From IMG/VR virus record IMGVR_UViG_3300031873_001030: DNA of 64,000 nt; one strand, 5' to 3'. The notes below the pieces were generated by a model. The model was not told where the DNA came from and searched no databases. It was given only the letters and a program-made list of their open reading frames with translations. Source of the DNA: a virus (Duplodnaviria > Heunggongvirae > Uroviricota > Caudoviricetes). The translations under genes were made by a program, and so were the position numbers. Position 1 is the first letter of the stretch. The number at the start of each line of letters is the position of its first letter. Shown piece by piece: positions 3,441 to 62,092 of this stretch.

Positions 3441-4010
3441 ATGAAGACAATAGAAGTAGAAATAAAAGGTCCTATTTTGCTGATGCATAATCCGAAGTCT
3501 ATGCTAGACCCACAGACTACTGGAACGAAATCATCAACTGCGAAATATGACTATAATGTCGAAGCAGAGAAGTCTGCTTACAAGACGAAAAAAAATGAAT
3601 TATATATTCCTGCCCAAGCTATGTTCAGTTCCACATTGAATGGAGCTTCTTTCAAGAAAGTAGGAAAATATACTGCCAAGAGCATTATAGCTGGCAATAT
3701 GAGAATAGAGCCAGAAGAAATCCTGATTCTAGATAGCAAAGGGAAAGTCATGACAAAATATGAGATAGACTTGAGGACTGTGGTTATTGCTCAAGGTAAG
3801 AAAAGAAACCGAATAGTCAGGGCAAGAGCTATGGTAAAGGATTGGAGTGCTAGATTCAGAATAGTCTATAACGACCAATTCATAGGCGACCCTGCTATAA
3901 TAGAAGATTGCTTGAAGGATGCAGGTTCAAGGATAGGTCTGTTGGAATACAGACCACAGACAAGTGGAAGCTACGGAACATTTGAGATAGTGAAATTCAA
4001 GGTGATATAA
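3441..4010 (+). CDS. hypothetical protein, translationally coupled to the ParB-like gene
   Basis: ORF track; AAGGTGA upstream; stop abuts ATG 4011. Confidence 0.65.
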   Translation: MKTIEVEIKGPILLMHNPKSMLDPQTTGTKSSTAKYDYNVEAEKSAYKTKKNELYIPAQAMFSSTLNGASFKKVGKYTAKSIIAGNMRIEPEEILILDSKGKVMTKYEIDLRTVVIAQGKKRNRIVRARAMVKDWSARFRIVYNDQFIGDPAIIEDCLKDAGSRIGLLEYRPQTSGSYGTFEIVKFKVI

Positions 4011-4895
4011 ATGGCACTATGGGATAGGGAAGAAAGAAAGCATACGGAAAATAAAGTATTGCCACTCAAGGATATAGTATTTGATGAGAACATATATCCA
4101 AGACAAAGTTCATGGTGGCAAACTTCGTATAAATATGCCGAAGAGATGAAAGCAGGCGCAAGGTTTCCTCCAATCACAGTAGGTTTTGTGAATGGAAGAT
4201 ACGTGCTTGTGGATGGGAAGCATAGGAATGACGCACTTCTGATGAATAAGGAGACACATACATCAGTAGTAGTTCTCTATGGTTACACTTTGGATGAACT
4301 CTATATTGAAGCTGTAAAACTCAATAGGGCTCACGGTGTAGGACTTACTTCTTTCGACAAGGTCAAGATAATCAAGAGACTTGAAGATATGAAATATTCA
4401 TTGGGAGACATAGCCACGATAGTCCAGATTCCTTTGGGAAGCATAGAGAAATTTGTAGCACAGAGGATTACGTTAAATCCATTAGGACAAGTCACAGTAT
4501 TGAAATCTCCTCTCAAGTTTATGGCAGGAGGAACTATAACGATGACTGACGAAGAGCAAGATACTCTAAGTGTGAGGAGTGAGATAAGTCTGGTAAATCA
4601 GATGACACAGATATTCTCAAATCCGAAGATGCTAAGGGTTGATATAACATTCGTTGATGCTATCGAGAAGCTTTACCAACTGATTCAAGATTTCCTCAAA
4701 GAACAGAAAATTTTGAATGGAGCTGGAAATACAATAGAAGAAGTTCCAAAAGAGAAAATATACAAGAAAAGAGGAAGACCTAAGAAAATCAAGACTGAAA
4801 GTGAGACTTCAGAACCAAAGAAAAAGGGAAGACCTAAAGGTTCTAAGAACAAGCTTAAAGAACTTGATGTCAGTAACGTCAAAGAACAAGCATAA
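4011..4895 (+). CDS. ParB/Srx-fold (ParB-like nuclease domain) protein with two C-terminal AT-hooks
   Basis: N-terminal LPLKDIVFDENIYPR ... RFPPITV ... YVLVDGKHR matches the ParB N-domain pattern (DGxHR). C-terminal KKRGRPKK and KKKGRPKGSK are AT-hook cores. Confidence 0.7.
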   Translation: MALWDREERKHTENKVLPLKDIVFDENIYPRQSSWWQTSYKYAEEMKAGARFPPITVGFVNGRYVLVDGKHRNDALLMNKETHTSVVVLYGYTLDELYIEAVKLNRAHGVGLTSFDKVKIIKRLEDMKYSLGDIATIVQIPLGSIEKFVAQRITLNPLGQVTVLKSPLKFMAGGTITMTDEEQDTLSVRSEISLVNQMTQIFSNPKMLRVDITFVDAIEKLYQLIQDFLKEQKILNGAGNTIEEVPKEKIYKKRGRPKKIKTESETSEPKKKGRPKGSKNKLKELDVSNVKEQA

Positions 4896-4944
4896 ATAGT
4901 TAATCAGTTAGACTTTATTTGGAAAGAATGAAGCAGGGTTTAGT

Positions 4945-5015
4945 GACAACGAACCTCAGAGATAGAACTTACTGATTCTTAGAATCAGTTGGTTCTTACT
5001 GCGAGGTTCGTTGTC
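4945..5015 (+). repeat. 71-nt imperfect-hairpin element, copy 1 (candidate structured RNA or DNA cruciform site)
   Basis: Outer 13-bp stem GACAACGAACCTC/GAGGTTCGTTGTC, inner stems AGAAC/GTTCT and ACTGATTCT/AGAATCAGT; 50 nt after the ParB-like stop. Confidence 0.8.
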
Positions 5016-5431
5016 ATAGTTCCTTCCCTCTTCATACTTTCTTTAATATTAGGGAATTTATAAAAACTGTAGGTTTTTATTATGAGATAAGGTTCGGTTG
5101 GGTCAGTTGGGGTGGGTTCCGTTCCGATATGGTATGGTAAGATTATATTTATTGGACGTGGTAGGATAGGGTAGGATGCGATATGGTATTGTTACTTGTT
5201 CCGATATGGTTCGGTGATTTGGGGTTAGGTTAGGTCTGTTCCGATAGGGCAAGGTATGGTATTTTATTTATTCGATACGGTTCGGTTTGGTGGGTTTGGG
5301 TTAGGCAAGATAAGATAGGGTTAGACAAGGTATCTTACTTTTGTATCCGATTGGGTAAGGTCTGGTAGTATTCGGTCCGTTGTGGTTAGGCACGATATGG
5401 TGTGGTAAGGTTTGACATTTATAGTCAGTCA

Positions 5432-5491
5432 TTAACATATGATAAAGAGTTGGACCCAGTGCACGGGTGGCATTCCATTAACATATGTTAA
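5432..5491. repeat. palindrome pair (5432-5445 TTAACATATGATAA with 1 mismatch; 5478-5491 perfect) enclosing a 32-bp GC-rich insert
   Basis: Read directly; insert agagttggacccagtgcacgggtggcattcca is 19/32 G+C. Confidence 0.9.
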
Positions 5492-5525
5492 TGAGAAAAG
5501 ATAAGAAATAATGTAAAATGATAAT

Positions 5526-5798
5526 ATGAAGAAGATAAAGGAAGAATTTTGCTTTCGCAGGAATGATACTAGAACTTCATATGATATGCAGAAAGGCTAT
5601 CTGATATATGGCAAGATTGATGACATTTATAATATCATCACTTACAATCTATTTGAGATGTGGAATACTACAAAGTGTTTTAAAAGGTTTAGGAAATTGT
5701 TCGTCACTACTTCAAATCACGAATGGATACATTATCTTGTTCCAGATATAAAAGATGGAAGTCTGATGAAGAAGATTGAAAATTGGTTTAACTGGTAA
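5526..5798 (+). CDS. hypothetical protein embedded in the GGTNN tract
   Basis: ORF track; bracketed by a 42-bp perfect direct repeat that contains the palindrome. Confidence 0.45.
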   Translation: MKKIKEEFCFRRNDTRTSYDMQKGYLIYGKIDDIYNIITYNLFEMWNTTKCFKRFRKLFVTTSNHEWIHYLVPDIKDGSLMKKIENWFNW

Positions 5799-5822
5799 AA
5801 TGTATCGTTAACCAAAATTCCA

Positions 5823-5836
5823 TTAACATATGTTAA
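5823..5836. repeat. TTAACATATGTTAA palindrome (within the 42-bp direct repeat 5817-5858 = 5472-5513)
   Basis: Read directly. Confidence 0.95.
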
Positions 5837-5881
5837 TGAGAAAAGATAAGAAATAATGAAAATCAAAAAGAGGTAAAAAAA

Positions 5882-5989
5882 ATGAGATACTATTGCCGAG
5901 AACATAAGGAAAGTTTTGAGACTACTGTCTGCTTTCTTCAACATGTTCTTAAGGAACACCATAGCATATTTGACATCACAAGTGAATAG
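5882..5989 (+). CDS. 35-aa Cys/His-containing peptide
   Basis: ATG 5882 lies 45 nt after the palindrome; translation MRYYCREHKESFETTVCFLQHVLKEHHSIFDITSE; below the track cutoff. Confidence 0.3.
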   Translation: MRYYCREHKESFETTVCFLQHVLKEHHSIFDITSE

Positions 5990-6151
5990 ATATTTATGTG
6001 ATGAGGTGGGGTCAAGTCAGGTCGGTTCTGGTTGCGATACTGACCTTATCACACCAAACCTCACCTTACCAGGGTTCGATAAGTTGTGATTTGGTAGGAT
6101 AGGGTAAAGTTATTTATATTTGAAACACGTAATTATATGTCAAGGAAGTCT

Positions 6152-6223
6152 GACAACAAACCTCAGAGTTGGAACTTTCTGGTTCTAAAAAATCACTTAG
6201 TTCTTTCTGCGAGGTTTGTTGTC
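6152..6223 (+). repeat. imperfect-hairpin element, copy 2
   Basis: Outer stem GACAACAAACCTC/GAGGTTTGTTGTC. Confidence 0.8.
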
Positions 6224-6949
6224 TTTGTATCGACTTTATCATTCGGTCAGGTAAGGCGGGTTCAGGTGGGGTATAGTTTCGGTTCGGTATGGTAGTTTGA
6301 CATTTATACGATACGGTAAGGTGAGGTTTGGAAGATAGTCTTTATGATTCGGTAAGGTGGGGTCAGTTGCGATTGTGTGAGGTTTGATTTGGTTTGGTCT
6401 GATTTGGTAGTTTGAGGCAAGGTAAAGTTAATTCCTTTTATATGATAAGGTATGGTCTAATTCGGTCTGGTTTGGTTGGATGGGCTACGTTCCGATAAGG
6501 TTCGGTATGGTAATATGACACTTATACGATTAGGTTCGGTCAGGTAAGGTTGGGTCAAATGCGATTAGGTAAGATGAGGTTCGGTCAGATACGGCAAGAT
6601 ATGGTATAATATTTATTCGGTTAGGTGAGGTCAGTTTAGGTCTGGTCTGATGTAGTTTGGCATGGTAGTATAACACTTATCGGTTTGGTTCGGTATGATG
6701 CGATATGGTCAGATTCGGTTTGATATGGTAGTATGACACTTATTGGTCAGGTTTAGTAGAATATGGTAAGGTTCGGTTCGATACGGTGGGATATGGTCAG
6801 TTAGGATTTGGAAAAGGAGAGAATAGTTTCAAGAAAGAATCAGCCCTTGGGTGAGTCCCTTGAAATGAAAAATGCCGCACCAGAGATGGTGATATTAGGT
6901 AAACTAATATAAATCAAGGTTCGAACCGTCCGTTAGGCAACGGTTCTCT

Positions 6950-7020
6950 GACAACAAACCTCAGAGTTAGAACTTACTGGTTCTTGAAATCAGTTGGTTC
7001 TTTCTGCGAGGTTTGTTGTC
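6950..7020 (+). repeat. imperfect-hairpin element, copy 3
   Basis: Outer stem GACAACAAACCTC/GAGGTTTGTTGTC; preceded by hairpin GAACCGT..ACGGTTC (6923-6946). Confidence 0.8.
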
Positions 7021-7201
7021 TTCCTCCAAAAAATTACTTATTCGATAGGGTAAGGATAGGTATGCTATGTCAGGGTCAGGTTTGGTTAGGTTTGATATGG
7101 TATGGTAAGGTAATTTAATACTTTTGCTTTGGTGCAATATGGTAATATTCGGTAGGGTATAATTCGGTGGGTTCCGTTAAGGTATGGTAAGGATTATATT
7201 T

Positions 7202-7321
7202 ATGAAATACGTATATAGGAATAGAGATGATGAAAGGGAACTTAAATTTGAAGTTCCAGATAGTATGTCAATAGCTGAAGCATTTGAATTTGCAGAAAGG
7301 AAATGCGCCAGCATGGAGTGA
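7202..7321 (+). CDS. 39-aa hypothetical peptide inside the GGTNN tract
   Basis: Only non-repetitive, protein-like composition in this part of the tract (MKYVYRNRDDERELKFEVPDSMSIAEAFEFAERKCASME); weak. Confidence 0.3.
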   Translation: MKYVYRNRDDERELKFEVPDSMSIAEAFEFAERKCASME

Positions 7322-7672
7322 TTATAATTTTTGGTCTGGTAGGGTGCGATTAGGTACGATTGGGTTTGGTCAGATAGGATATGATATGGACTATTGTAAT
7401 TTTCGGTTAGGTGCGGTTAGGTCTGGTTTGGTGCGTTCGAGGTGTGGTCAGATAGGATATGGAACTTTCATTCGTACTTTTCGGTAGGGCATTATTCGGT
7501 CCGATATGGTCTGGTCAATTCCGCTCTGGTTCGGTTAGATAGTGTATGGTGATATATGTTAAGTCGTGGTTTGGTTCGGTCTGGTAGAATGAGGTTTATC
7601 TTTTTTGATAGGCTATCGTTCGGTCTGGTGAGGTATGGTTCGGTAGGGTTCGGCAAGGTTTAATCCTTTTAG

Positions 7673-7787
7673 GAAAGGGTCTTTGATTCATTCCCTTTCT
7701 ATAAAAGATTTATCCCACGTCTTCGGGATTTATCCCTTCTTTCAGAAGGGATTTATATATCACCGAATCTCGTTTTAAACGAGATTC
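7673..7787 (+). promoter_or_regulatory. cluster of four hairpins (7673-7699; 7707-7758 double ATCCC/GGGAT unit; 7765-7787 GAATCTCGTTT/AAACGAGATTC)
   Basis: Inverted repeats read directly. The GATTTATCCC-N6-8-GGGATTTAT unit recurs at 25703 and 43483. Confidence 0.6.
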
Positions 7788-7963
7788 ACAAAGAACTTGT
7801 GGTCGGGTCTGATACGGCAAGGTGTGATACGGTAAGATAAGATTGGGTTATGGTCTGGCAAGGAACTTTTTACTTATATGGTTTGGCACGGTCCATTCCG
7901 TTGCGTTTAGGTGTGGTAAGGCTTGGTATGGTTACGATTTATTTGGCGTAACATATGTAATAC

Positions 7964-24479: not shown

Positions 24480-24527
24480 TGTCAAATTAGAAATGCAATA
24501 CGATTGTTAACAAGAAAGTTAACAAAG

Positions 24528-24598
24528 TCTCACCTGCCAGAATTGCACCAGCATCTACGAGGCTACAGCTCGTTGTTCTACTGTTGAACTAAGGCGAG
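24528..24598 (-). tRNA. tRNA-Tyr (GTA)
   Basis: Hand fold CTCGCCT-TA-GTTC-AACAGTA-GAAC-A-ACGAG-CTGTAGC-CTCGT-AGAT-GCTGG-TGCAATT-CTGGC-AGGTGAG-A; C1-G72 as in archaeal/eukaryal tRNA-Tyr. Confidence 0.75.
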
Positions 24599-24601
24599 TT
24601 G

Positions 24602-24674
24602 TGGGGATGCTGAGATTTGAACTCAGATTATTCGCTTCCAGAGCGAAGGTTCTAACAAGTTATACTACATCCCC
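24602..24674 (-). tRNA. tRNA-Pro (TGG)
   Basis: Acceptor GGGGATG/CATCCCC, anticodon arm TTCGC-TCTGGAA-GCGAA, T arm CTGAG-TTCAAAT-CTCAG. Confidence 0.85.
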
Positions 24675-24677
24675 AAG

Positions 24678-24751
24678 GGAGAATAGAGGGATTTGAACCC
24701 TCTCTAACAAGTTCACAGCTTGACGTGCTCGCCTACTACACCATATTCTCC
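24678..24751 (-). tRNA. tRNA-His (GTG) with genomically encoded G-1
   Basis: G-GAGAATA...TATTCTC-C, D stem GTGT/GCAC, anticodon loop CTGTGAA, T arm GAGGG-TTCAAAT-CCCTC. Confidence 0.8.
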
Positions 24752-25212
24752 ATTTTATTATGTTCTTCTCTATGGCAATTTGCACATAGAAGTTTGCATT
24801 TCTGCAATTCTTTTCGTATCACCTCGAGACTATTATGCCATATTCTGGATATTTCATATTTCTTTTCTCCGTTCATATGATGAAATTCAAGTGCTGCGAA
24901 ACATTTGTTATATCCACATTTTTGACATTTACCTCCAAATTCCATTTTCATAATTTTTGTTTTTTCTTGGTTTTTACGCTTTTGTGCTATATACCACAAA
25001 TGTCTCTGAGGGAGAGATGATTTTTGTTTATGTTGTTTTATATATTTTCTCATATATTCTCTATGATATTTTTTCCTTTTTTCTCTGTTTTCAGGGTTTG
25101 ACAACCAAATTTTCCATCGTTCTTTTTCTTGCTCACGGTGTGATTTTCTATATAATCTATTTATTTCACACAATCGTTCTTTGTTTTTTTCATAATATTT
25201 TTTACTGGTCAT
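24736..25212 (-). CDS. HNH endonuclease with N-terminal basic Tyr/Lys-rich region, inserted in the tRNA cluster
   Basis: CQKCGY...LEFHH...N...CANCHREEH; its 3' end overlaps tRNA-His by 16 nt. Confidence 0.8.
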   Translation of the reverse strand: MTSKKYYEKNKERLCEINRLYRKSHREQEKERWKIWLSNPENREKRKKYHREYMRKYIKQHKQKSSLPQRHLWYIAQKRKNQEKTKIMKMEFGGKCQKCGYNKCFAALEFHHMNGEKKYEISRIWHNSLEVIRKELQKCKLLCANCHREEHNKMENMV

Positions 25213-25255
25213 ATAATGTAATTGTTTAATACCATTTATATTTGTTGTTGAACTA

Positions 25256-25330
25256 CGCTCTGGGCAAGACTCGAACTTGCAATTTCTCCGTTAACAGCGG
25301 AGCGCTTGTACCTGTTTAAGCTGCCAGAGC
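25256..25330 (-). tRNA. tRNA-Asn (GTT)
   Basis: GCTCTGG-CA-GCTT-AAACAGGTAC-AAGC-G-CTCCG-CTGTTAA-CGGAG-AAATT-GCAAG-TTCGAGT-CTTGC-CCAGAGC-G. Confidence 0.85.
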
Positions 25331-25333
25331 AAG

Positions 25334-25437
25334 TACTCCCCGAATGATTCGAACATTCGTCTCTTGGTTTCTCCAAGTTTCAGATTCTTGTTGAAATTAT
25401 CAAAGCCAAGCATCTTTGTCCACTGGACGAGGGGAGT
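25334..25437 (-). tRNA. tRNA-Gln (TTG) with a ~31-nt intron after position 37
   Basis: Acceptor ACTCCCC/GGGGAGT (A1-U72); anticodon stem CTTGG/CCAAG enclosing CTTTGA-[intron]-A; T arm GAATG-TTCGAAT-CATTC. Confidence 0.65.
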
Positions 25438-25466
25438 ATATTGATTGTAGTTCTTTTTAAAAACTA

Positions 25467-25538
25467 TGGACACAAGCGGGAATCGAACTCGCATCTCTTT
25501 CTTGCAAGGGAAGTATCCTACCATTAAACGATTGGCCC
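25467..25538 (-). ncRNA. degenerate tRNA-like element (Ala TGC-like anticodon loop CTTGCAA) with mismatches in the acceptor, anticodon and T stems
   Basis: GGGCCAA...TTGTGTCCA pairs at only 5 of 7 acceptor positions (2 mismatches). Anticodon stem CTTCC/GAAAG and T stem GCGAG/CCCGC each carry an A-C mismatch. Confidence 0.35.
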
Positions 25539-25702: not shown

Positions 25703-25729
25703 GATTTATCCCTCTAACGGGATTTATAT
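25703..25729. promoter_or_regulatory. GATTTATCCC-tctaac-GGGATTTATAT hairpin unit overlapping the XPF stop codon
   Basis: Read directly; same unit as 7707-7758 and 43483-43508. Confidence 0.5.
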
Positions 25730-26358
25730 TTTTCAGTCAATATCTTCTTGATTCTAGTTGAAAGTACGTCTCCTATTCCCTTTGCTTTCTGCAAGTCTTC
25801 CTCACTGGCTAAAAGTACTTTTTCAACAGAACCGAGATTTTCCAACAGCCTTTTGGATATTGTCGAATTTACTCCAGGAATGGAGGAGACTATCTGCTCT
25901 TGTATCTTTGACATTTCTGTCGGCACCTTTTCAAATTTGTATGATACAGTTCTTTTGCTTTCAACTTGCTCTTTTTTCGCAAGATGATATATCATTCTGG
26001 CAGTGTCCATTTTGTCCTTAGTATTTACTATGGAAATGTTGAATCTGATGATTAGACTTGCCATAGCGGCTTTCACAATGTTCACATCTATGCGTTCATT
26101 TGGAAATCCTTCTATGATTATGATGACAATCTTAAAATTGTCCTTCATCCTAGTTGTCTGTTCAAATAACCTTCCATCAAATATTGACGCTACAAAATCT
26201 TGATATGTCTTCCTTTCAATCACTGTCCTATCCGAAACTATGAAGTCTCCAACTTCCAAGAAAGATTCATTCAAGTTGACGTTGGCAAAATTTCTCAGAA
26301 AGTATATCAGCTCTTTTTCCCTGGAATCTGCTGATATCGTGATTTTAAATTCTTCCAT
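25714..26358 (-). CDS. short-form XPF/Hef-type ERCC4 nuclease with C-terminal (HhH)2
   Basis: DSRE...VGDFIV...VIERKTYQDFVASIFDGRLFEQ...IIIIEG; C-terminal IPGVNSTISKRLLENLGS...AKGIGDVLSTRI. Confidence 0.85.
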   Translation of the reverse strand: MEEFKITISADSREKELIYFLRNFANVNLNESFLEVGDFIVSDRTVIERKTYQDFVASIFDGRLFEQTTRMKDNFKIVIIIIEGFPNERIDVNIVKAAMASLIIRFNISIVNTKDKMDTARMIYHLAKKEQVESKRTVSYKFEKVPTEMSKIQEQIVSSIPGVNSTISKRLLENLGSVEKVLLASEEDLQKAKGIGDVLSTRIKKILTEKYKSR

Positions 26359-33829: not shown

Positions 33830-33882
33830 TTAAGTGATAAGAGGCAATAGAAAGTGAAAGAAGAAATCATTAATTTCTTTGT

Positions 33883-33904
33883 ATACTTTCTTTGAAGAAA
33901 GTAT
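33883..33904. promoter_or_regulatory. ATACTTTCTT-tg-AAGAAAGTAT palindrome abutting the PrimPol-like start
   Basis: Identical to 31548-31569. Confidence 0.85.
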
Positions 33905-33905
33905 T

Positions 33906-34622
33906 ATGATAGAAGATGAAATTATAAGCGGGAGAATTTCTATTGGTCGGGTTGGTATTTATCTTAATGCTAAGACTAAAGGTGGTTACAATATAGGATT
34001 TAATTTTCTTAATAGTCCAGAGCTGAGGACTGCGGGCGTGTGCAATATCACGAAGGACCAGATGTTTATAATGTTTGCTGATTTTGACAATATAGGTTAT
34101 GAAAAACTTAAAGACCAGTTGGATTTCATAAATAGGAATCATGATGTGAGCAATTTTCTTGTTCTTACGACTGGAAAGAATCGATATCATGTGATAAGTT
34201 TTGAAAAATTCTGGAAACAGGAATTAGTTGACATATTGAAGAATACTTTCTGCGATTATACGTATAAAAGTTTTGTTCCGTTGAAAGTTGACAAGGGCTG
34301 GATACTTAGGGTGACTGAAAAGAGGGATTTGGATAATAATGTTGTGAAGGACAGGCCTGAATATGTAGAATCGTTTTCTTATTCTGAAGTCCCTAAGAGG
34401 AGATTGTCGCGTGCTCACGTAGAATTTTTTTCGAGAATGTATCCTGAATTCAGGAAATTTGCAGAGGAGAAGCTTGATAAAAATTATTGGGATGAGTTTA
34501 CTGTGATTCAGCTGCTGAAATATGGGACAAGCCATGAGAATCTTATTGCAAAATTTGACTTGAAGGATTTGATAGATTCCAAGAAGCTTGAAATAGTGTG
34601 GAAGGACAATATATTTGATTAG
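33906..34622 (+). CDS. archaeo-eukaryotic primase (AEP)/PrimPol-like replication protein (tentative)
   Basis: FIMFADFDNI (hhhDxD) and LTTGKNRYHVISF (sGxxxH) occur in the order and spacing of AEP motifs I and II; motif III is unclear. Confidence 0.5.
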   Translation: MIEDEIISGRISIGRVGIYLNAKTKGGYNIGFNFLNSPELRTAGVCNITKDQMFIMFADFDNIGYEKLKDQLDFINRNHDVSNFLVLTTGKNRYHVISFEKFWKQELVDILKNTFCDYTYKSFVPLKVDKGWILRVTEKRDLDNNVVKDRPEYVESFSYSEVPKRRLSRAHVEFFSRMYPEFRKFAEEKLDKNYWDEFTVIQLLKYGTSHENLIAKFDLKDLIDSKKLEIVWKDNIFD

Positions 34623-35502: not shown

Positions 35503-35982
35503 GTGATTGATATGAAAATTGAAGTAAGGATGCACCATCTTAGCGAACTTAAGAGAAAGTTGCTTGATTCTGATATGAATCATACCAAGTATATTTTACT
35601 GGATGAGATGAGAGCGACGATAGATAAGTTGAAGGGTGACAGGAATCTCATGTTCAAGATTGTTGCTATGATGTCGAAAGTGACTACTGCTTCTCGGTTG
35701 ACTACTGAAGGGATGATAATGGCTTTGGAAAATATGGTTTTGTTTGATATAATGCAATATGATATTTTACAGGATGGTGATGTGACTGTTTTGAATCTGA
35801 ATGTTGATGATAATTATTTTGAGATTTTTAACAAGATTCCTCTGATTGGCAGGTTTATCTCAACTCTTTCTGGAGGAAGAAAAAGATATTTGGAAGAGGT
35901 GAGAAAAACTATAGAGGAGGATTATACAAAAGATTATACACTGAAAATAATCATGGATGATACAAAGGAGGTTCATGAATAA
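35503..35982 (+). CDS. hypothetical protein
   Basis: ORF track. Confidence 0.5.
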   Translation: MIDMKIEVRMHHLSELKRKLLDSDMNHTKYILLDEMRATIDKLKGDRNLMFKIVAMMSKVTTASRLTTEGMIMALENMVLFDIMQYDILQDGDVTVLNLNVDDNYFEIFNKIPLIGRFISTLSGGRKRYLEEVRKTIEEDYTKDYTLKIIMDDTKEVHE

Positions 35983-36239
35983 TGAATCGCGTCACATTGT
36001 ACATATTAAAATGCGATAATGGAATGTTTTATACTGGTATTACTAGAGATTTAAAAAAGAGACTTTTTCAGCATAGAAATTGTAAAAGTTCTTCATTTGT
36101 AAAAAGAAGAAATTTAAATTTTGATGTTGTTTATACTGAAACTTTTGGGAATTGGACACTTGCTAGAAAAAAGGAAAAATATTATAAGAAGATGAATAGG
36201 GAAAAATTAAAAAAAATTATAAAGAGTGTGACGCGATGA
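35982..36239 (+). CDS. GIY-YIG nuclease-domain protein (paralog 2)
   Basis: LYILKCDNGMFYTGITRDLKKRLFQH...RKKEKYYKKM; colinear with 26599..26859. Confidence 0.8.
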   Translation: MNRVTLYILKCDNGMFYTGITRDLKKRLFQHRNCKSSSFVKRRNLNFDVVYTETFGNWTLARKKEKYYKKMNREKLKKIIKSVTR

Positions 36240-49388: not shown

Positions 49389-52300
49389 ATGCATTGGAAA
49401 CATTTACTTACTCATAAGTCTCTTTTTCTGGAGGGGATTCGAATCAGTATAAGATTGTCAAAGGCAACTGTAAAGATTACAAGCTTGATATTCGCATTGG
49501 CTCTGATTGGAACTTTTGGCTATCTTTTTATCTCCAATGTCAGCAACAAAGTGAGTGGAGATTCTTATAATGACATAAATATGAGTGATATAGTCAATAA
49601 TACTATAGTGACAGCATCTAGTTATTCGAATTATGAATATGAGGTGACTAAAAATGTATACAAGACTTATTTCCAAGACAATATCAATTCAGGTGAAGCT
49701 GTAAGGTTTGAGAAGGATGGATATTATTTCATATATGATTTGAGTGGTGGAAAGATTCAGTGGGCAGAACAAGATGGAAACCCTACGAAGACAAAGTCCA
49801 TAGGAGCAATATTATCTTCTCCGATAAGTCTTGCTGGTGATAAAGTTTATTACAATGATGCTTTTGCATATACAAATGTGAGTTATCTTATCTTGAATGA
49901 CATGCTCAAAGAGAATTTCATATTGTCATCATCGTTGCCGATAGATGACACATACTTGTATTTGGAATATACTGGTGAGATAAAGCATTCGGATAGTCTG
50001 ATGATTTATGCAAATGATAAGAATCAGACTGAAAAGAATTTTGTAACTCAAGGTAAGATAGAATTCAAGGATGTAAATGGAACTACGATATTTTTCTTAC
50101 CAGCACCTACAGTAACTGATTCGAATGGAAAGTCGGAATATGGTTTTTATGATATAAAAATTTCCAGTGGAAAGATTGCATTCAATCTTAGAGTGAACAG
50201 CACTTTCTTGAAAAATGCCGCTTACCCAGTGTATATAGACCCAACTATTAGAACTTTCAATGATACATTATCATCAAAAAACTTGACATTTATATGGAAT
50301 CAGAATCAGACACTTTATATATCAATACCAAAAAATGCTATAGTTACAAATGCTTACTTGAATTTGAGTGGATTCCCGGCACAGAATAATGTAAATTTCT
50401 TTGACCCCTTAGACAATGGAAATTATATTAGTTCAACCAATGCTATAGTAAGTGGCGGGCAAATAACATTAAATCGTCAAAACAATACAGGGGAAAGTTT
50501 TACTTCACCTCCCTGCAGTGAAATACAATATATAGGCGGTACCGTACCAGGTACTTATGCAACTGCACAATCCTTTAGAGCATCGGGTGTGTATCTTTCA
50601 TATATTAAAGTCAAGTTCTTCAATCAAGTCACCGCAACATTATCAATAAGGTCGAGTTTAGCTGGAGCCAATCTTGTTTCTACAAGTGTTGCAAGCGGAG
50701 ATGAGAGATATTATGAATGGTATATCACAAACCCACCAGCGCTCACTGTTGGTAATACTTACTACATAGTTCTTACATGGAGTTCTGACGGAAGCAATTA
50801 TGGAGGCTTGAGACAGGCTTGCTACAATTATTTGTATCCGAACGGAACTTATTATGCTTACTTGTTAAGTTCCTGGAACACTGAACCGAATGGGGCTTAC
50901 TATGACCATGCTTTTGAAACAAAATACTGGGAGTATGATACAAGCAATTATGTTAATTCAGTTGCAATAGACACCACATCATATTATTTGAATGCAACCT
51001 TAACAAAATCAGATAACATACCAGCAGGAACATCAATAACTTATTATTTAAGTTCAAATGGTGGCGCGTCTTGGGAACAAGTCACCTCAGGCATAAATCA
51101 TACATTCTCTAATATCGGGCAAGATATCAGATGGAGAGGAGTATTGACAACAAATTCTGATAGGTCATCAACACCAACACTTTATAACATGACTGTGAAT
51201 GCATCTCAAGGGTATTGGCCAATGAATCCTTATCTTGATATTTCTGGGGATGGAGACGTGGAATGGAATTATACAGGAACATTTAATCAATCAAACAATA
51301 GGACAGCAAACTTATCCTCTGAAATAAACACATATTTGTCGACTTGTACACCAACAAGTGGGAATTGCACAATGCCATTAGTATTCCATTCAGATACAGC
51401 AGGAATAATTCAGGTTTCAGATATCAACATAACATATAATGTGCCTTTTATATCGGTTTGGAATACTTCAAAGGCAGGAACTAGCAACTCTACACAGATT
51501 GAATTGCCTTTATACAATGGAGGCACTTATGCATTTACAGTGGACTGGGGTGATGGAACAACAGATTACATCACTTCATATCTGAATGATAACCACACTT
51601 ATGCGACAGCAGGGGTTTACGTTGTGAACATAGCTGGGACTATAAATGGATTCAGGTTCAACAATGGTGGCGACAGATTAAAGATTATCAACATCACACA
51701 ATGGGGAGACTTGAATGTAGGAAATTCTGGTAATTATTTTCACGGTTGTGCTAATTTGAATAGCAATGCCACTGATAACTTGAATTTGGCAGGAACTACG
51801 GATTTGTCTAATATGTTTTATTCAGCTACTTCCTTCAATGGAAGTATTTCAGGCTGGGATACAAGTGGTGTCACTTCCATGTATACTATGTTCTATGGCG
51901 CTTCTAATTTTAATTCGAATATTTCAAGCTGGAATACAGGAAATGTAATCAATATGGAATATATGTTTTATACCGCTTCTTCCTTTAATCAGAATATTTC
52001 AAACTGGAATACAGGAAAAGTCACTAGTATGTTAAGTATGTTTCATGGTGCCACTTCTTTCAATCAGAACATAAGCAATTGGGATGTCAGTAAAGTCACT
52101 ACTATGTCTGATATGTTTCATAGTGCTACTTCCTTCAATGGAAATATTTCAGGCTGGAATGTAGTCAATGTCACTACTATGTATGATATGTTCCATAGTG
52201 CCACTTCTTTCAATCAGAGTATGAGTAGTTGGAATACAGGAAATGTTGCTACTATGTTTTCCATGTTTTATGGTGCTACTGCTTTCAATGGCAATATTTC

Positions 52301-55300
52301 AGGCTGGAATACAGGAAATGTCAATAATATGGTAGCTATGTTTTATAATACTCCTTTTAATCAGAATATTGGAAATTGGAATGTCAGCAGTGTCACTACC
52401 ACATATCAGATGTTTTATAGTGCTTCTATTTTCAATCAGAATATCAGTAGTTGGAACACAAGTAAAGTCATTACTATGAGTGAGATGTTTCGTGGTGCTT
52501 CTGCTTTCAATCAGAATATAAGCAATTGGGATACAAGCAAAGTCACTACTATGACCAATATGTTTTATGATGCTACTTCATTCAATGGCAATGTTTCAGG
52601 CTGGAATATAGGAAATGTCACTACTATTGATTATATGTTCCGTGGTGCTACTTCTTTCAACCAGAGTATGAATAATTGGAACACAAGTAAAGTCACTACT
52701 ATGTATGCTATGTTCTATGGCGCTTCTAATTTTAATGGAAATATTTCAAATTGGAATACAAGCAATGTCATTGCCATGGATTATATGTTTTATAATACTG
52801 CTTTCAATCAGAATATTTCAAGCTGGAATACAGGAAAAGTCGCTAGTATGGCAGGTATGTTTCAGAGTGCTGCTTCCTTCAATCAGAATCTTAGTTCTTG
52901 GAATGTCAGTTCAGTGACTAATGCGGCAAATATGTTTTTGTCTGTGACATTATCTACTCCCAATTATGATTCCTTGCTTGTTGGATGGGGCAGCAGGGTT
53001 GAAAAGAATGCTACTGTTTTTTCGGGAGGTAATTCCAAGTATTCTGCTGCTGGTCTTGCTGGCAGGAATAATTTGACTGGTATTTATAATAATTGGACTA
53101 TCACTGATGGTGGTCCTGTGGACATAATTAATCCGACATATACTAACTTCGGTTCAGATTACACGAATAACACAGCAGTAAATGGCGGAAGTATTTTAAC
53201 TTATTATGCGAAATGGATAGATAATATCCAATTAGACAAATGTGTAAACTCAAGCAAGATAAATACCTCAGGCAGCTGGACTAATGGAACTTGGGCATCA
53301 GCAGGAACAGGTAACTGGACTAACTACACAGTAAAATTTCCAGCAGAAGTAGGAAGCAACTATACAGTAAAAATCTATTGTAACGATACTTCTGGATACA
53401 TGAATGTGACTGGAACTTTATTCTGGTGGGCAGAGAGTTTTGTGATAACTCAGAATCATACTTGGCAAGGTACGACATTGGAAGATGACAATACATTCGC
53501 ATATTCTCCAACGTTGAATGTGAGTTTCCAGATGACTGCATTGAATTTTGACAATGGAACATTTGAATTTGACGGAGCTAATTATACAATTTCTACAAAT
53601 CCAAAAGTTTACAACAATACCAATGGAGTTTATTGGATTAATTTTACAAATAAAAAACCAGGAAATTATAATTTCAAATGGTATGCCAGTACGATTAGTG
53701 GAATATGGAAAAATACAAGTCAAGTGACTTTGATAGTTACAAAGGCATATCCTGCATTTTCAAATTCAGTTACAACACCGATAAATTATCTTACTGCATC
53801 TGATTATGCAAGTAATGGAAATAATTTAGGTTGTGATGACTGTACATATTATACAAAAAGGAATGGAACTCAGATATGTGTTGGAGCTTGTTCAGATACG
53901 ACTGTATTAGGAGCAAGTGCATATAATTATACAATCTATACGGCTGGAGGTGAGAATTATACTTCAGGCCAGAGTGAATTGGATTTGACTGTGAATAAAA
54001 TCATATTGTCAGGTACGATAAATTCTCCTGATGTGACTTATCCTACTGGAATGTCAATAACTGGAAGCGAATCAAATACTGGAGATGGAGATGTCGCATA
54101 TCAAACTTGTTTAGATAATGTATGTACATTAGGCAAGGGACCAAATACTTTTAATTATGGTGCGAATACTTACACTTGCAAGTTCAACACCACTGGAGCT
54201 ACTTTTGAAAACTATACGGCAAGTGCAAGCATAGCTATAGACTCATGCACTATAAACAAAGGTACGTCACTTTCGCTGTCGATAAATTCAAATGTGACAT
54301 CACCGATAACATATCCTATACCATCATCGATAAACGGAAGTGGGTGTGTGTTTGGAGCTGGTTATGGGACAGATATAGTTTGTACTTTATACAGAGGAAA
54401 TTCAACTTGGTCAGGAACTGGAAATGATACGGCAATCTTAGGAGCGGGCATCTATGCATATAATTATTCTACTCCAGGAGGAACAAACTGGACTGCAACA
54501 TCTGCAAGCAATTATACACTGATAGTGAACAGGGGAAGTCTTTCTTTATCGATAAATTCCAATGTCACGTCTCCGATAACATATCCTACACCATCATCGG
54601 TAAATGGAAGTGGATGTGCAGGAAGTGATGTAGTCTGCACTTTATACAGAGGAAATTCGTCTTGGTCTGGAACAGGAAATGATTCTGCAGTTTTATCTGC
54701 AGGTGTGTATGCATATAATTATTCCACTCCAGGTGGAACTAACTATTCAGCAGCATCTGCTGTTAATTATACATTGGTAGTGCTTGGTAATACTCCGCCA
54801 ACATATTCGTATTTTGGTGCAACTGTTCCAAATAATACAGTAGTGGTTGGTGGAAGTGTTGTGACTTATTATGCAAAATGGTCAGATGATGTCCAATTGG
54901 ATAAGTGTGCAAATTCTTCGAGAGTGAATAATTCAGCATGGGTTAATGGGACATGGGTATCTCCAGGAACAGGCAATTGGACGAACTATACAGTAGCATT
55001 TCCATCTGAGCGTGGGAGCAACTTGACAATAAGGATTTATTGCAATGATAGTGTCGGGCAGATGGTTGAGACTGGAACTTTGTTCTGGATTATAGATTAT
55101 TATCCATATTCAAATTCTACAGGACAAGCAAGCAATTCGATACCTTCAGGGACTAACAACACGTTATTTTCTAAATTATTTGCTGGTGGCGGAGGCACTA
55201 CACTTAGTTGGGCATGGCTATCTACAAATGAAACAGGAGCGTGGAAAAATTATACAATTACTAATTATACGTATTATAGTGTAATCTTAAATGAATCAAA

Positions 55301-58300
55301 TAGTGGTAATATTGGTGATACTTTTGAGGCAGGTAGTAGTAATCCTAATATAAATAATGGTATATATCCAAGTCTGGAAGTCTATGCATTTTATGGTATG
55401 CGAACATTTTTGTTGTGGAATTTGTCAATAATACCAACAGGTGCTACAATAGTTAGTGCTAATTTGTCTTTATATGGGTATGATATTGCACATGGTGGAC
55501 TTGGTTCAAGATTGTATAATGCATATAATACATCTACATATACTCTCAATGATTGTGGGCAGCAATGGATAGAAGGAACAAGGAACCAGTCAGCTAATGT
55601 GACCTGTAATGAATTGGTATATAACAATCAGCCATCTTTGAATATTTTACAGGATTCTATTTGGACTGGAACTACAAGTAATGTTTGGTTATCTTGGAAT
55701 GTGACAAACGCCACTATATCAACTTATTCAAATACAACCAATAAAAATATGAGCATAGTAATAAAAGAAAATACTGAAGTTGACAATATTTATTCACTTT
55801 TCTTCTCAAAAGAATATACAGGTAACATAGCATTAAGGCCACAATTGAATATAACATATGCATTGCCTTCTCCTTATATTGCTGGAAGTTTATTCAATTG
55901 GGTTAATTTCACGTGGCAGAACAATTCCATAATTGCTGGAAACATAATAGGTTGGAAGATATATTTCAATGATTCTTTAGGGCATGAAAATGTGACTGAG
56001 ACATATAACTTTACTATTGAGAGTAGCAAACCGATAATATCCCAGAATCATACTTGGCAAGGTACGACATTGGAAGATGATAATACATTTACATATTCTC
56101 CAACTTTGAATGTCAGTTTCCAGATTACTGCATGGGCTTATGATTTGAACATTCTTACTGCGACATTTGAATTTAACGGAGTCAATTATACAAATTCAAC
56201 AACAACTAGGGTCTATAATAATACAAATAATGTGTTCTGGATTAACTTCACTTCGATGAAAGCTGGCAATTATAATTTCAGGTGGTATGTCAATGATACT
56301 GTAGGTGGATGGAGCAATACAAGTCAAGTTGTATTGGCAATAGGTAAAGCTACATTGGTTGGAACAATATCCTCTCCAGATGTGTATTTTCCTGCTGACA
56401 TGTCACTGACTGGTTTGGAAAGCAATGCAGGAGATGTGGATGTTGCATATCAGACTTGTCTAGGTGATGCATGTAAACCTGGATTAGGACCAAATCTTTT
56501 TGGTTCATGTTGTGAATATCCTGCAGATACTTACACTTGCAAATTCAATACGACTGGAGCTGTCTTTGAGAATTATACTTCAAATGCCAACATAGCTACA
56601 GATTCTTGTACAATCAATAAAGGAGGACTTGTAGGAACAATAACAAGTCCAGATGTAACTTATCCAGCTGACTTATTTTTAACTGGTTCAGAGAGCAATG
56701 TAGGTGATACAGATGTCACATATCAGACTTGTGTCAGCAACATATGTAAGGCAGGTTTGGGTGCGAATAGTTTTGATATTGGAGGAGGAACATATAATTG
56801 CATATTCAATACTACAGGAGCTACTTTTGCAAATTGGACGGCAAGTGCAAGCATGCAGACTGACAGTTGCACTGTAAACAAAGGAATATTGACAGGAAGT
56901 TCTTCATCACCAGCAGTGACTTATCCTGCTGGATTGACAGCGACAGGAACTGAAACTAACACAGTGGATACTGATGTCGCATACAGGGAATATTGTGAAT
57001 TAGGAACAAAAGGAGTTTTGATGGGTTCTGCCTTAGGTGGAAATCCTTCAGGAACTGTTGTGCTTGATGTAGGGACATGGACATGCAAGCTTAACACCAC
57101 AGGCGGACCATTTGCCAATTGGACTGCATCCGCAAGCATAGGAACATCTGTTGGAATAGTAAGCATAGGAACATTGACTGGGACTATATCATCTCCAGAT
57201 GTCACTTATCCGACTGATATGACAATCACTGGAATTGAGACTAATACTGGTGATAGTGATGTTGCTTATAGGACTTGTTTAAGTGGCAGTGGTGAATGCA
57301 AGTCAGGAAAGGGACCAAATACTTTTGATTATCCTCCTGGAACTTATAGTTGCGTATTTAACACTACAGGTGCGGCATTTGCAAATTGGACGTCATCATC
57401 AAATATTGCTACGGATGTGTGTGTCATAAACAATGGAACGCTTACAATACAATTGTCAACACCAACTCCTATAACTTATGAAGCTGTAGCTGGTATCGAA
57501 GGATGGATTACTAATAACGCTGGAGATGGTGGATGTACTTATATCTTATTGAGGAATGGCACTCAAATCAATACCAGTATTCATGTCACTGATAACACAA
57601 TACTAGGTGCTGGATATTACAACTATACTTATTATACAGCAGGTTGTGCAAATTATACTATCAATAGGCTTGCTGATGTGCCATTGACTGTGAATCAGAA
57701 AAATGCATTTGTAAGAGTCTATCCATGGACAGGTCCTATAACATATGAGACAAGTGTATTTCAATATTGTACATCCTTATCTACATTGGTAAATTGTACG
57801 ATGTACAGGAATGGAACTACAGTTACGAATGGAACGAATATAGTATTAGGAGTTGGAGCTTATCTTTTCAAGGCTAACATATCAGATGCTGCCAATTATA
57901 CAAATTATGATGACTTGAATATTCTGACTGTCGATAAAAAACAGTTGGCAGCAAATTTATGGATTAATGGTCACTTGAATCAGAATACAACTGTGGTTCA
58001 AACATTCCCATACATTCCTAAATATGCGACTTCAAATGCGACGAATATCAATGGATTGAGTGGTTCTCTATATAGAGATGATGCACCTGTTGCAGGTGAT
58101 ACTGATACAATTCCACCTGTGCAAGGAACATATAAATACAAGGCCAATGCGACTGGAAATGTAAATTATACAAGCGATTCTGTAGGGCAGACATTTTATG
58201 CAAGTGTCATCTCAGCTCACAACATAACAATCTCAAGTCCAGTAAATGGAAGTTCGATTGGGATATTGCCAAATACAAATAAGAGTGTCCAAATAAATTA

Positions 58301-60647: not shown

Positions 60648-60649
60648 TC

Positions 60650-61099
60650 ATGAAAATGATATATAGGAAAGCAGCATCGTTGACTTTATTATTATCCATA
60701 TGGGCTGGAATAATAGGAGTTGGTGTATTGGCATATCCAAGCGGATATAAATCTACTTGGGACCAGATACAGACAGTATATTCAAATCCAGTTGGTGCAA
60801 TTCCAGTGATAATTAAGAATGCATTTTCAGCAGGGAATCTTGGTATGTTTGGAGGATTGTTAGTTGCTGGAGCAGTATCTGCAGTGATATTTACAACTTC
60901 TGTCTTGGGTGGTGGATTTTCCCAGCTGTTTGCAATTCCACTATTGATTATATTTGCAGTTGTCAATATGTTTGTCTTGCCAACGACTCAGATATTGTCA
61001 GAAAGTGGTGCGCCTTATGCAGTGCAGGTAATCTATACGCTTTTCATAGGGACACTTACTATTTTGACGGCATTGACATTCACTTCAGGTAGACCATAA
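60650..61099 (+). CDS. polytopic membrane protein
   Basis: ORF track; 3 nt after the giant ORF stop. Confidence 0.6.
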   Translation: MKMIYRKAASLTLLLSIWAGIIGVGVLAYPSGYKSTWDQIQTVYSNPVGAIPVIIKNAFSAGNLGMFGGLLVAGAVSAVIFTTSVLGGGFSQLFAIPLLIIFAVVNMFVLPTTQILSESGAPYAVQVIYTLFIGTLTILTALTFTSGRP

Positions 61100-61149
61100 G
61101 AGGCAAATGATATGAAAAAAGAAGATACAGAGAAGGAGGGAATGAGAAA

Positions 61150-61425
61150 ATGGTAGTATCTTTTCCATTCTTATGGGATGAATTGATTCAACAATTGTTA
61201 CTTAGTGTGACAGGTAGCCCATTACTTGTTGGTCTAATCGGAATATTTTTCATCGGAGTGTTAGGATTGGCAATGAGATTGACATTAGAGATACAGCTAA
61301 TTGCGATGTTCTTTTTTATAATGCTAATTGCTGTCGCATATATACCATGGATAAGTGGAGTTGTGCTAATTGTAGCTGGAATATTCGTTGGAATGTTTTT
61401 CTTTTACACGTTTTTCAGAGGATAA
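61150..61425 (+). CDS. small membrane protein (three TM helices)
   Basis: ORF track. Confidence 0.55.
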   Translation: MVVSFPFLWDELIQQLLLSVTGSPLLVGLIGIFFIGVLGLAMRLTLEIQLIAMFFFIMLIAVAYIPWISGVVLIVAGIFVGMFFFYTFFRG

Positions 61426-61426
61426 T

Positions 61427-61615
61427 ATGGAATTTGAAAAAGAATTGCAGTGCCCAAGATGCAGGACAAATTCACTGATAGATATAGGTGATTGGGATGA
61501 TGAGAATCTTTTCAAGTGCGTGTCTTGCAGATATTGGTTTCTGGAATCTTACATAAGAGGAAAAAATAATGATGCGTTGTGTCTGCATGAAGTGCCGATA
61601 GGAGATTTAAAATGA
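61427..61615 (+). CDS. zinc-ribbon protein (CPRC...CVSC)
   Basis: ATG 61427 lies 2 nt after the previous stop; in frame with track ORF 61388..61615. Confidence 0.5.
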   Translation: MEFEKELQCPRCRTNSLIDIGDWDDENLFKCVSCRYWFLESYIRGKNNDALCLHEVPIGDLK

Positions 61616-61830
61616 AATATCTGTACAACAAAGTTTCAGAAAAAATAGATGAGCTGATAAGGAAGAGCCCGAAGAGGGAGTTGGATATGGAATTATTGAA
61701 GAGGAGTCTTCCAAATAAGATAAGGCTTACAAGATTTGACGTATTGAGCATTGTGAGAGAAATGGAAAAAGATGGTTGTTTCGTTATCGATGGCAATAAA
61801 CTCAGAAAGGAGGTGAAAACCGATGGTTGA
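61612..61830 (+). CDS. small wHTH-like protein
   Basis: ORF track; ATGA overlap. Confidence 0.45.
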   Translation: MKYLYNKVSEKIDELIRKSPKRELDMELLKRSLPNKIRLTRFDVLSIVREMEKDGCFVIDGNKLRKEVKTDG

Positions 61831-61942
61831 ATACATTGTGAAAATATATAAAAGGAAAAGAGACGGAACTCTGACTGCTAATCTTGTGAGGCATTCTTAT
61901 AAGAAAGGAAAGGCTATAAAGATGGCTAAAGTCAATATTTGA
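61823..61942 (+). CDS. 39-aa basic peptide
   Basis: Overlaps the previous stop by 8 nt. Confidence 0.3.
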   Translation: MVEYIVKIYKRKRDGTLTANLVRHSYKKGKAIKMAKVNI

Positions 61943-61978
61943 TGAATTAAGATATAAAATAGTGGAGGTGAAAAAGAA

Positions 61979-62053
61979 ATGGCAAAAAAATGTTCAAATA
62001 AAGGAAAATTACTCAAAGTCAAGGGAAAAGTTCCCAAAGGTTGGAAAAAATGA
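61979..62053 (+). CDS. 24-aa basic peptide ending GKVPKGWKK
   Basis: GGAGGTG 8 nt upstream; 3' end lies in the 37-bp repeat 62024-62060. Confidence 0.35.
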   Translation: MAKKCSNKGKLLKVKGKVPKGWKK

Positions 62054-62092
62054 AAGAGTTGAAAAATATAAGATGATGGGGGTGAAAAAGAA

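Follow-up and report, generated by a model that had tools for sequence, protein, structure and literature searches.

A four-copy palindromic hairpin in a Caudoviricetes genome is probably a small mobile element found in and outside a VIPR guide-RNA array

The 64,000-nt stretch of a Caudoviricetes genome analyzed here (IMG/VR record IMGVR_UViG_3300031873_001030; hereafter, the window) contains an imperfect hairpin of about 70 nt in four copies, three of which lie at or in a tract of GGT-NN repeats, the array of VIPR guide RNAs (vrRNAs) described below. The initial annotation noticed that two adjacent positions of the outer stem differ between the copies on both arms, such that pairing is kept, and argued from this covariation that the structure is under selection, with a non-coding RNA and an attC-like recombination site among the candidates. 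The question raised by this locus is whether the hairpin is a selected structure, a component of the array, or a repeat that entered this genome and spread. The results described below favor the last possibility: the hairpin probably represents a new family of non-autonomous palindromic insertions that resemble MITEs (miniature transposable elements with inverted repeats) and REPINs.

The hairpin family is real. Reading and alignment of the sequence placed four copies, all on the plus strand, where the initial annotation had put them, and a covariance model built from these copies, when run against the full window and the related loci, retrieved exactly the four (E = 1e-20 to 1e-25; the next match in the window had E = 0.33). 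The copies (c1 to c4) and the two ends, as found in c1, are the following.

4944..5016, plus strand: hairpin copy c1, 73 nt, TGACAACGAACCTCAGAG ... CTGCGAGGTTCGTTGTCA; 99.4 bits in the covariance model; preceded, at 49 nt, by the stop codon of a ParB-like gene and followed by the first vrRNA block, with TAG/TAG flanks
4944..4961, plus strand: left 18-nt end, TGACAAYRAACCTCAGAG, constant in 4 of 4 copies except for the YR (CpG) positions
4999..5016, plus strand: right 18-nt end, CTGCGAGGTTYRTTGTC(A/T), complementary to the left end, read in reverse, at all positions but 15-16
6151..6224, plus strand: hairpin copy c2, 74 nt; within the vrRNA array; 89 bits
6949..7021, plus strand: hairpin copy c3, 73 nt; within the vrRNA array; 98.4 bits
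34623..34695, plus strand: hairpin copy c4, 73 nt; 81 bits; in the 117 nt that separate two co-directional genes, 27 kb off the array and 1 nt past a stop codon

The units are 71-74 nt long, contain no open reading frame (ORF), and are all intergenic; all four have the same orientation, which is the direction of the neighboring genes. The outer arms are GACAACGAACCTC/GAGGTTCGTTGTC in c1, GACAACAAACCTC/GAGGTTTGTTGTC in c2 and c3, and GACAATGAACCTC/GAGGTTCATTGTC in c4. Every unit follows the arm pattern GACAA-YR-AACCTC / GAGGTT-YR-TTGTC, and the 13-bp outer stem, with two adjacent columns changed on both arms, is perfect in all four copies, exactly as originally read. Counted on both arms and both strands, the arm pattern occurs 10 times, compared with 1.8 expected occurrences, and none of 100 shuffles contained as many. 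A flanking T is constant in all copies and pairs with a 3' A in c1 and c4, resulting in a 73-nt unit there. Altogether, each of the four copies is bounded by terminal inverted repeats (TIRs) that are perfect over 13-14 bp, or extend to 18 nt if a 2-nt mismatch at positions 15-16 (AG vs GC), which is fixed in all copies, is included.

For all copies, the predicted fold is one long hairpin that consists of the 13-bp stem, two 2x2 loops separated by 2 bp, and an inner part with a 6-bp stem, a 1x1 loop, and a 7-8-bp stem. The internal loops are symmetric only (2x2 and 1x1), both for RNA and for DNA, and there are no extrahelical bases. The RNA fold energies of c1 to c4 are -40.5, -31.5, -37.2, and -23.9 kcal/mol, corresponding to z-scores of -8.4, -7.2, -7.3, and -4.6 relative to shuffles, and the DNA folds are also far below those of shuffles (z-scores from -11.4 to -4.4). 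The segments AGAG and CTGC next to the outer stem are invariant, as the initial annotation had observed, but they are not fully unpaired as it had supposed, given that the second AG of AGAG pairs with CU in the predicted fold, which creates the two 2x2 loops. Similarly, the inner stems, which had been described as kept in c1-c3 and degenerate in c4, are intact in c1 and c3, whereas those of c2 are kept only in part (3 unpaired cells and 2 G.T wobbles), and in c4, 9 of the 16 inner pairs are indeed non-Watson-Crick (7 unpaired, 2 G.T wobbles). Several known motifs were rejected upon inspection of the fold by eye: a K-turn, the loops being symmetric 2x2; an archaeal bulge-helix-bulge splice motif, for lack of a pair of 3-nt bulges 4 bp apart; a C/D-box sRNA, for lack of a UGAUGA box; and a REPIN doublet, the halves not being palindromes themselves.

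The compensated columns (C-G in three copies and U-A in one; A-U in two copies and G-C in two) are both bases of the only CpG of the stem, which reads CG/CG in c1, CA/TG in c2 and c3, and TG/CA in c4. Across the window, the observed/expected ratio is 0.50 for CpG, compared with an excess of TG and CA (1.2) and a value of 0.75 for TA; the CpG dinucleotide is therefore either hypermutable or counter-selected. Methylation with deamination and restriction avoidance are possible causes of the depletion. Each arm that loses its CpG has, by calculation, a 1-in-2 chance of remaining complementary to the other, and for two independent events, which is all that the two columns represent, the chance is about 1 in 4. 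When the columns were shuffled 500 times, as many doubly changed pairs appeared in 281 shuffles, and the covariation score was reached in 93. Because there are only two such columns, confined to one CpG in a CpG-poor genome, and the shuffle test is not significant, the pair-count covariation is too thin to demonstrate selection on structure, and the original interpretation is only partly supported. Moreover, in c4, the most diverged copy, the inner pairs are broken instead of compensated, which speaks against structural selection, and among the mismatches of all copies, G.T and A.C combinations are represented by 7 and 5 cases, respectively, so that no strand is singled out.

In contrast to the pairing, the sequence of the hairpin ends is clearly constrained. 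Pairwise identity among the copies ranges from 68 to 91%, with c3 and c2 at 91% and c4 at 68-74% to the others. The variation is concentrated in the interior, where 23 of the 38 columns vary, compared with 5 of the 36 end columns, four of which belong to the CpG (Fisher p = 4e-5).

The locus around c1 to c3 comprises the following features.

3441..4010, plus strand: vipr gene, 189 aa, RAMP-like Vipr homolog; phrog_4652
4011..4895, plus strand: ParB-like gene, phrog_1033 ParB-like; homologs carry PF02195
5080..7940, plus strand: vrRNA array, ~2.9 kb of GGT-NN blocks, delineated by GGT periodicity
~5080-5420, 5990-6130, 6240-6810, 7040-7200, 7320-7680, and 7800-7940, plus strand: the GGT-NN blocks

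In VIPR systems, which were described in 2026 preprints (including bioRxiv 10.64898/2026.04.26.720920), a Vipr protein of the RAMP-like type is accompanied by an accessory vap gene and by vrRNAs. According to these preprints, a vrRNA consists of 9-16 YNNGG repeats and a 3' tail and guides DNA recognition; a vrRNA locus is recognized by neighboring blocks of non-coding DNA in which GGY and NN alternate in pentamers (9-16 per vrRNA); and the arrays can be plain, staggered, or separated by hammerhead ribozymes. The product of 3441-4010 alone yielded a weak PDB match to 'SUSP1 Vipr protein', and a profile of 14 homologs (this protein and 13 others) matched PDB 36pp_D over the full length (1-185 vs 1-189) with E = 4.4e-23. 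The spacing of the GGT motifs is in multiples of 5 nt only, the individual blocks, which are broken up by shifts in phase, span ~70-110 nt, and each vrRNA block ends in ATGGTA.. and an A/T-rich motif (TTATATTTAT or GACACTTATAC). A tract of the same kind is located 3' of the vipr/ParB-like pair in the relatives L011, L012, and L014, and also 3' of Vipr homologs in 8 IMG/VR contigs, that is, in 11 other loci in total. The tract in or next to which the initial annotation had correctly placed three of the copies is, as judged from these sequence features, a VIPR vrRNA array, interrupted by small ORFs, operator-like palindromes, and the hairpins c2 and c3. The ParB-like gene is probably the vap gene, given that, in agreement with the published layout, it separates vipr from the array.

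The compared loci are designated by L-numbers, which stand for relatives or for extensions of the same genome (L028, 9.2 kb upstream; L024, 7.1 kb downstream). In L011, which comes from another sample, Vipr is 87% identical to that of the window and the ParB-like protein is 75% identical. This locus aligns on both sides of c1, with 80% identity in the left flank and 97% in the right flank, and the gap is located exactly over the hairpin: the window reads GGGTT, then TAG-73 nt-TAG, then TTCCTTCCCTCTTCATACTTTC, whereas L011 reads GGGTTGTTGTTCCTTCCCTCTTCATACTTTC. In L012 and L014, too, the stop of the ParB-like gene runs straight into the array with no hairpin between them. At c4, the hairpin follows the stop codon of the gene 33879-34622, as the initial annotation had pointed out; its assignment of this gene to PrimPol found no support in searches of Pfam, PHROGs, NCBIfam, and PDB sequences. 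The homologs of this upstream gene are 74-61% identical, and the equivalent spacer, which spans 117 nt in the window, is 35 nt long in L018 and 43 nt long in L022/L023, where the downstream gene also has a homolog, with no hairpin in any of them; in L019 and L020, the genes overlap at the equivalent site. Without the 73 nt, the c4 site reads TAG followed by GGCTTTTATTGTA (GGC..ATTGTA), compared with TAG followed by GGACATTGTA in L022. Altogether, the flanks of c1 and c4 are retained, with no hairpin, in relatives whose proteins are 68-75% identical. For the other two copies, the evidence, again relative to L011, is less clean than for c1 and c4: the block 3' of c2 (6233-6294) is 87% identical to L011 6897-6957 and the block 3' of c3 (7061-7106) matches L011 7282-7327 with 89% identity, and in both cases the tail of the previous vrRNA adjoins there with no hairpin. 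Furthermore, two vrRNAs that are neighbors in L011 have ~810 bp of additional sequence between them in the window; this segment terminates at c2 and has the hairpin at one end only.

More generally, the covariance model detected no hairpin copy in any of 24 related loci. Of 13 related VIPR loci (L011 and 12 further ones, including L012, L014, and the IMG/VR loci), none has the hairpin, and in 10 related VIPR loci, the arrays contain no long palindrome comparable to it. No fifth copy was found in ~80 kb of the same genome (the window plus ~16 kb of extra flanks). The sole marginal match of the covariance model (L012 6828-6885, E = 0.008) is a separate 58-nt hairpin amid TGGAGTG motifs and was judged unrelated. 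Thus, comparison of the aligned sites shows the hairpin as an apparent lineage-specific insertion in this virus. Because it is missing in the related arrays and c4 is located 27 kb from the array, the hairpin is not a core part of VIPR.

We favor a MITE-type element because the hairpin is small and non-coding, has TIRs, combines conserved ends with a decaying interior, is intergenic, and is lineage-specific with intact flanks. The element would have entered this virus lineage and would now occupy four non-essential intergenic places. Its conserved, slightly asymmetric ends (AG vs GC at positions 15-16) would be recognized by a trans-acting enzyme encoded elsewhere, either by the host or in the ~12 kb that complete the viral genome. 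Movement as a folded single strand is probable and would fit with the near-absence of target duplication, the uniform orientation, and the kept complementarity of the ends. An effect at the RNA level, for example, a stable stem at the 3' end of the upstream transcript, would then be a by-product. The three copies in the array need not imply a function because the array is the largest non-coding block of the window.

Several observations weigh against this interpretation. Target-site duplication is inconsistent, with TAG/TAG at c1, none at c4 (a clean junction of TAG and GG), and at most a single T at c2 and c3. Among the 55 ORFs scanned, there is no domain of a transposase, RAYT/TnpA (Y1_Tnp), HUH protein, integrase, or tyrosine recombinase, only small GIY-YIG proteins, and no longer element or autonomous insertion sequence (IS) with the same ends was found in the window, its flanks, or the public scans. 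The copy number is just four, and no copy was detected beyond this genome: exact-core scans of IMG/VR (four patterns), JGI metagenomes, and GTDB representative genomes yielded nothing or chance matches without the GACAA arms; split-arm and end patterns had no non-chance match in these three collections; and blastn against phage and plasmid records returned only short chance matches inside genes. Any source population and any active mobility of the element are therefore hypothetical. In addition, the perfect 13-bp stem, the two compensated positions, and the common orientation of all four copies would also fit a selected RNA or single-stranded DNA (ssDNA) structure. Finally, the element may instead have been lost in the relatives, though this would require several independent precise deletions.

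Among the known systems, type II MITEs, such as Correia/NEMIS, RUP, and QMITE, are those in which conservation is confined to the terminal inverted repeats, and the target-site repeats of MITEs fade with age (PMC10969869). The hairpin resembles MITEs in being small (73 nt), non-coding, and multi-copy, albeit in low number (4 in ~80 kb), in having TIRs, in residing in AT-rich intergenic DNA, and in forming a stable stem-loop as a transcript or single strand; like type II MITEs, it has conserved ends and a decaying interior and differs between relatives in presence and absence. It departs from MITEs in lacking a consistent target-site duplication and a detectable related IS or transposase, and in having only four copies, all viral and in one orientation, with no sequence match in the searched collections. 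A lineage-specific insertion was indeed found, which comes near the MITE alternative mentioned in the initial annotation, although no known MITE matches it. REP/REPIN sequences and palindromes derived from IS200/IS605 elements are reportedly moved as ssDNA hairpins by RAYT/TnpA. As in these, a single imperfect hairpin of ~70 nt makes up the entire element, target duplication is nearly absent, there is a strand and orientation bias, and the arms stay complementary. It differs from them in that it lacks a 5' GTAG (the left flanks are TTAGT, AGTCT, TCTCT, and TTAGT), its halves are not REP-like palindromes, and no Y1/HUH gene was found in the scanned ORFs. A third comparison is with the promoter-early stem-loop (PeSL) cassettes of T4-type phages, which combine a sigma-70 promoter and a terminator (PMC2839356). 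In both cases, stem-loops are repeated in plastic, non-essential viral intergenic regions, at sites that differ between close relatives, and the hairpin copies are direct repeats that could support modular shuffling. A PeSL-like part in such shuffling (PMC2839356) is conceivable. In contrast to PeSL cassettes, the hairpin has no convincing promoter or U-tract, and at c1 and c4 the hairpin alone was gained. Scans for promoters and terminators near the copies gave counts at the shuffle level, and no intrinsic terminator was identified for the whole element, the sequences after the outer stem being ATAGTT, TTTGTA, TTCCTC, and AGGCTT.

If the hairpin were instead a selected cis-acting RNA structure on the plus strand, spread by duplication or retained after insertion, it could act as a 3'-end stabilizer, as an RNase III-type processing site, like the intergenic hairpins of T7, or as an insulator of transcription units. 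The orientation of all four copies along the neighboring genes, the location of c1 and c4 at 49 nt and 1 nt past stop codons, the very stable RNA folds, the constant 2x2 internal loop (AG/GC), and the two compensated stem positions are all compatible with such a role, as is the predominance of G.U among the non-Watson-Crick cells of c1-c3 on the plus strand (5 vs 2). However, the same sites are empty in every relative, the inner helices of c4 are broken without compensation, the G.U bias is reduced to 7 vs 5 overall, the covariation is not significant and involves one CpG only, and the stem is not followed by a U-tract. In the Rfam search of the window, only tRNAs passed the gathering threshold; the permissive mode added two generic, sub-threshold hairpin matches (E = 0.17-0.42), and the hairpin matched neither a known RNA family nor a ribozyme. 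RNase III processing is unlikely in an archaeon, and an archaeal host is hinted at by the XPF gene described below. Altogether, we regard an RNA function as unlikely. Very unlikely, in our assessment, is a folded ssDNA site for a recombinase or replication proteins, comparable to attC, rolling-circle or ssi hairpins, or a site for the exchange of vrRNA blocks. The hairpin folds well as DNA, and, like attC, it is an imperfect palindrome of similar length with conserved mismatches and a uniform orientation, is located just after ORFs, and has AAC/GTT at its extremities, as in the R boxes; in addition, the ~810-bp extra segment ends at c2. The core sites R''/R' of integron attC sites are RYYYAAC / GTTRRRY. 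The corresponding TGACAAC / GTTGTCA of the hairpin, however, share only AAC/GTT with these, all internal loops of the fold are symmetric and none of its bases is extrahelical, no IntI/integrase domain, tyrosine recombinase, or HUH protein was identified in the scanned ORFs, and there is no ORF-attC cassette structure, the insertions at c1 and c4 consisting of the hairpin alone; the ~810-bp segment is bordered by the hairpin at one end only. Neither for the non-coding RNA nor for the attC-like candidate of the initial annotation did the searches yield anything in support.

That three of the copies open the array or are embedded in it, each with a GGT-NN block 15-70 nt downstream, raises the further possibility of a dedicated component of the VIPR locus, such as a leader, spacer, or processing module of the array, for which there is a precedent in structured RNAs between vrRNAs, namely, the hammerhead ribozymes. 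The hairpin shares its position between vrRNA blocks with the structured RNAs reported for VIPR (vrRNA 3' tails and hammerhead-interspersed arrays; bioRxiv 10.64898/2026.04.26.720920), but, unlike these, it is not conserved in related arrays, contains no ribozyme, and has one copy outside the array. It is absent from the L011 array despite 87% Vipr identity and orthologous vrRNAs, and from 12 further VIPR loci, ~20 blocks of the window have no hairpin, and c4 has no vrRNA nearby, while the array, as the largest non-coding stretch, could tolerate a selfish insertion. Such a component is very unlikely indeed, and a ~70-nt palindromic hairpin is not mentioned in the published descriptions of VIPR (2026 preprints). 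A looser version, in which the hairpin is a VIPR-locus module, either a transcript-processing or insulating stem that cuts the array into sub-arrays or a direct-repeat or folded-DNA recombination site for the turnover of vrRNA blocks and small ORFs, is quite unlikely; under this version, the ~810-bp segment ending at c2 would be one gain or loss event, and c4 would be a stray. As for a protein-binding palindrome in double-stranded DNA, for example, a parS-like site for the ParB-like protein with the 13-bp arms as half-sites, parS sites are typically close to the parB gene, as is c1, 49 nt 3' of the ParB-like gene, and the dispersed copies and the conservation of the ends at the sequence level would be in agreement. 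We nevertheless consider it extremely improbable: L011 lacks the site despite a 75% identical ParB-like protein, the arms are separated by 45 bp, a symmetric dimer site would be expected to show neither the fixed AG/GC asymmetry nor the uniform orientation, and the ParB-like gene is better explained as a VIPR accessory gene.

The VIPR locus (3441-7960) itself is unusually large, with an array far longer than that of the SUSP1 phage, which has 1-4 vrRNAs. It contains a perfect 18-nt palindrome, CATTAACATATGTTAATG, at 5476-5493 and 5821-5838, and a half-site at 5429-5445; this palindrome is located ~35-45 nt 5' of small array ORFs (starts at 5526 and 5883), looks operator-like, and is conserved in L011 (6984-7033, 7574-7593, and 7659-7674). 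One vrRNA block ends in a hairpin (7657-7715 of the window, 7112-7183 of L011) that occupies the same position in both genomes but differs between them in the sequence of the upper stem (AGGAAAGGG/CCCTTTCT vs AGGAAGGAGAT/ATCTCCTTTCT); it is a better candidate for a selected structure than the 71-nt element. The region 6035-6070 has ACC-NN phasing and matches the opposite strand of L011 7190-7217 at 93%, that is, it is an inverted vrRNA fragment. The Vipr homologs of L033-L040 (IMG/VR) are 31-35% identical and are encoded on contigs of ~50% GC content, with GGY-NN blocks directly 3'; in L036 (10570-11170), a small hairpin resembling a terminator, GGTTTCTCTGGCGAGAAATTTTTAT, forms the end of each block. 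In L012 (6776-7070), a more distant relative, a cluster of ACTCCA/TGGAGTG motifs in both orientations surrounds the 58-nt hairpin (TTTACAACACTCCAA...TTGGAGTGTTGTAAA); this cluster resembles a set of iterons and has no relation to the 71-73-nt hairpin.

Other parts of the genome bear on its host. A short XPF (ERCC4 + HhH2) is encoded at 25714-26358 (minus strand), with Aeropyrum pernix XPF as the best PDB match (E = 7e-33), an ATP-dependent DNA ligase is encoded upstream of the window (L028 7763-8587), and a relative has a weak PCNA_N match (L020 956-1711). Because of these archaeal-type replication and repair genes, the host of the virus may be an archaeon; as a counterweight, Vipr homologs are also present in Pseudomonas and Gordonia phages. 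The window further contains a cluster of 4-5 tRNA genes at 24527-25538 (minus strand; Tyr, Pro, His, Asn, and a weaker Rfam match at 25468-25538) and a giant ORF of 3752 aa (49389-60647) with repeated DUF285 (BspA-like) domains, which is followed, beyond the window (L024), by ORFs of 1736 aa and >1460 aa. A stand-alone ORF of 85 aa with a GIY-YIG nuclease domain (35982-36239) is located 1.3 kb 3' of c4, and a second GIY-YIG match was found among the small ORFs. Near-identical strains (99.5-99.96%) are present in at least 4 independent samples (L024-L027 vs window 50650-64000), and one full-length, near-identical contig is 61 bp shorter (91,950 vs 92,011 bp).

As one more family of small palindromic mobile repeats, the hairpin is ordinary in kind. 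It is also a cautionary case, showing that a perfect stem with two 'compensatory' changes can come from CpG decay in an inverted repeat, with no need for selection on an RNA structure. The more valuable by-product is the context, namely, that a VIPR locus of unusual size is present in a genome that also carries archaeal-type repair genes. VIPR systems have already been published, whereas the hairpin family is new, and its home is a viral genome, a setting in which MITE-like elements have rarely been documented. If the hairpin were a module of the VIPR locus after all, it would be the first handle on the turnover of VIPR arrays, which the VIPR papers left open. As a small mobile element, it has colonized a guide-RNA array of a system described only in 2026 and could mark or promote the rearrangement of this array.

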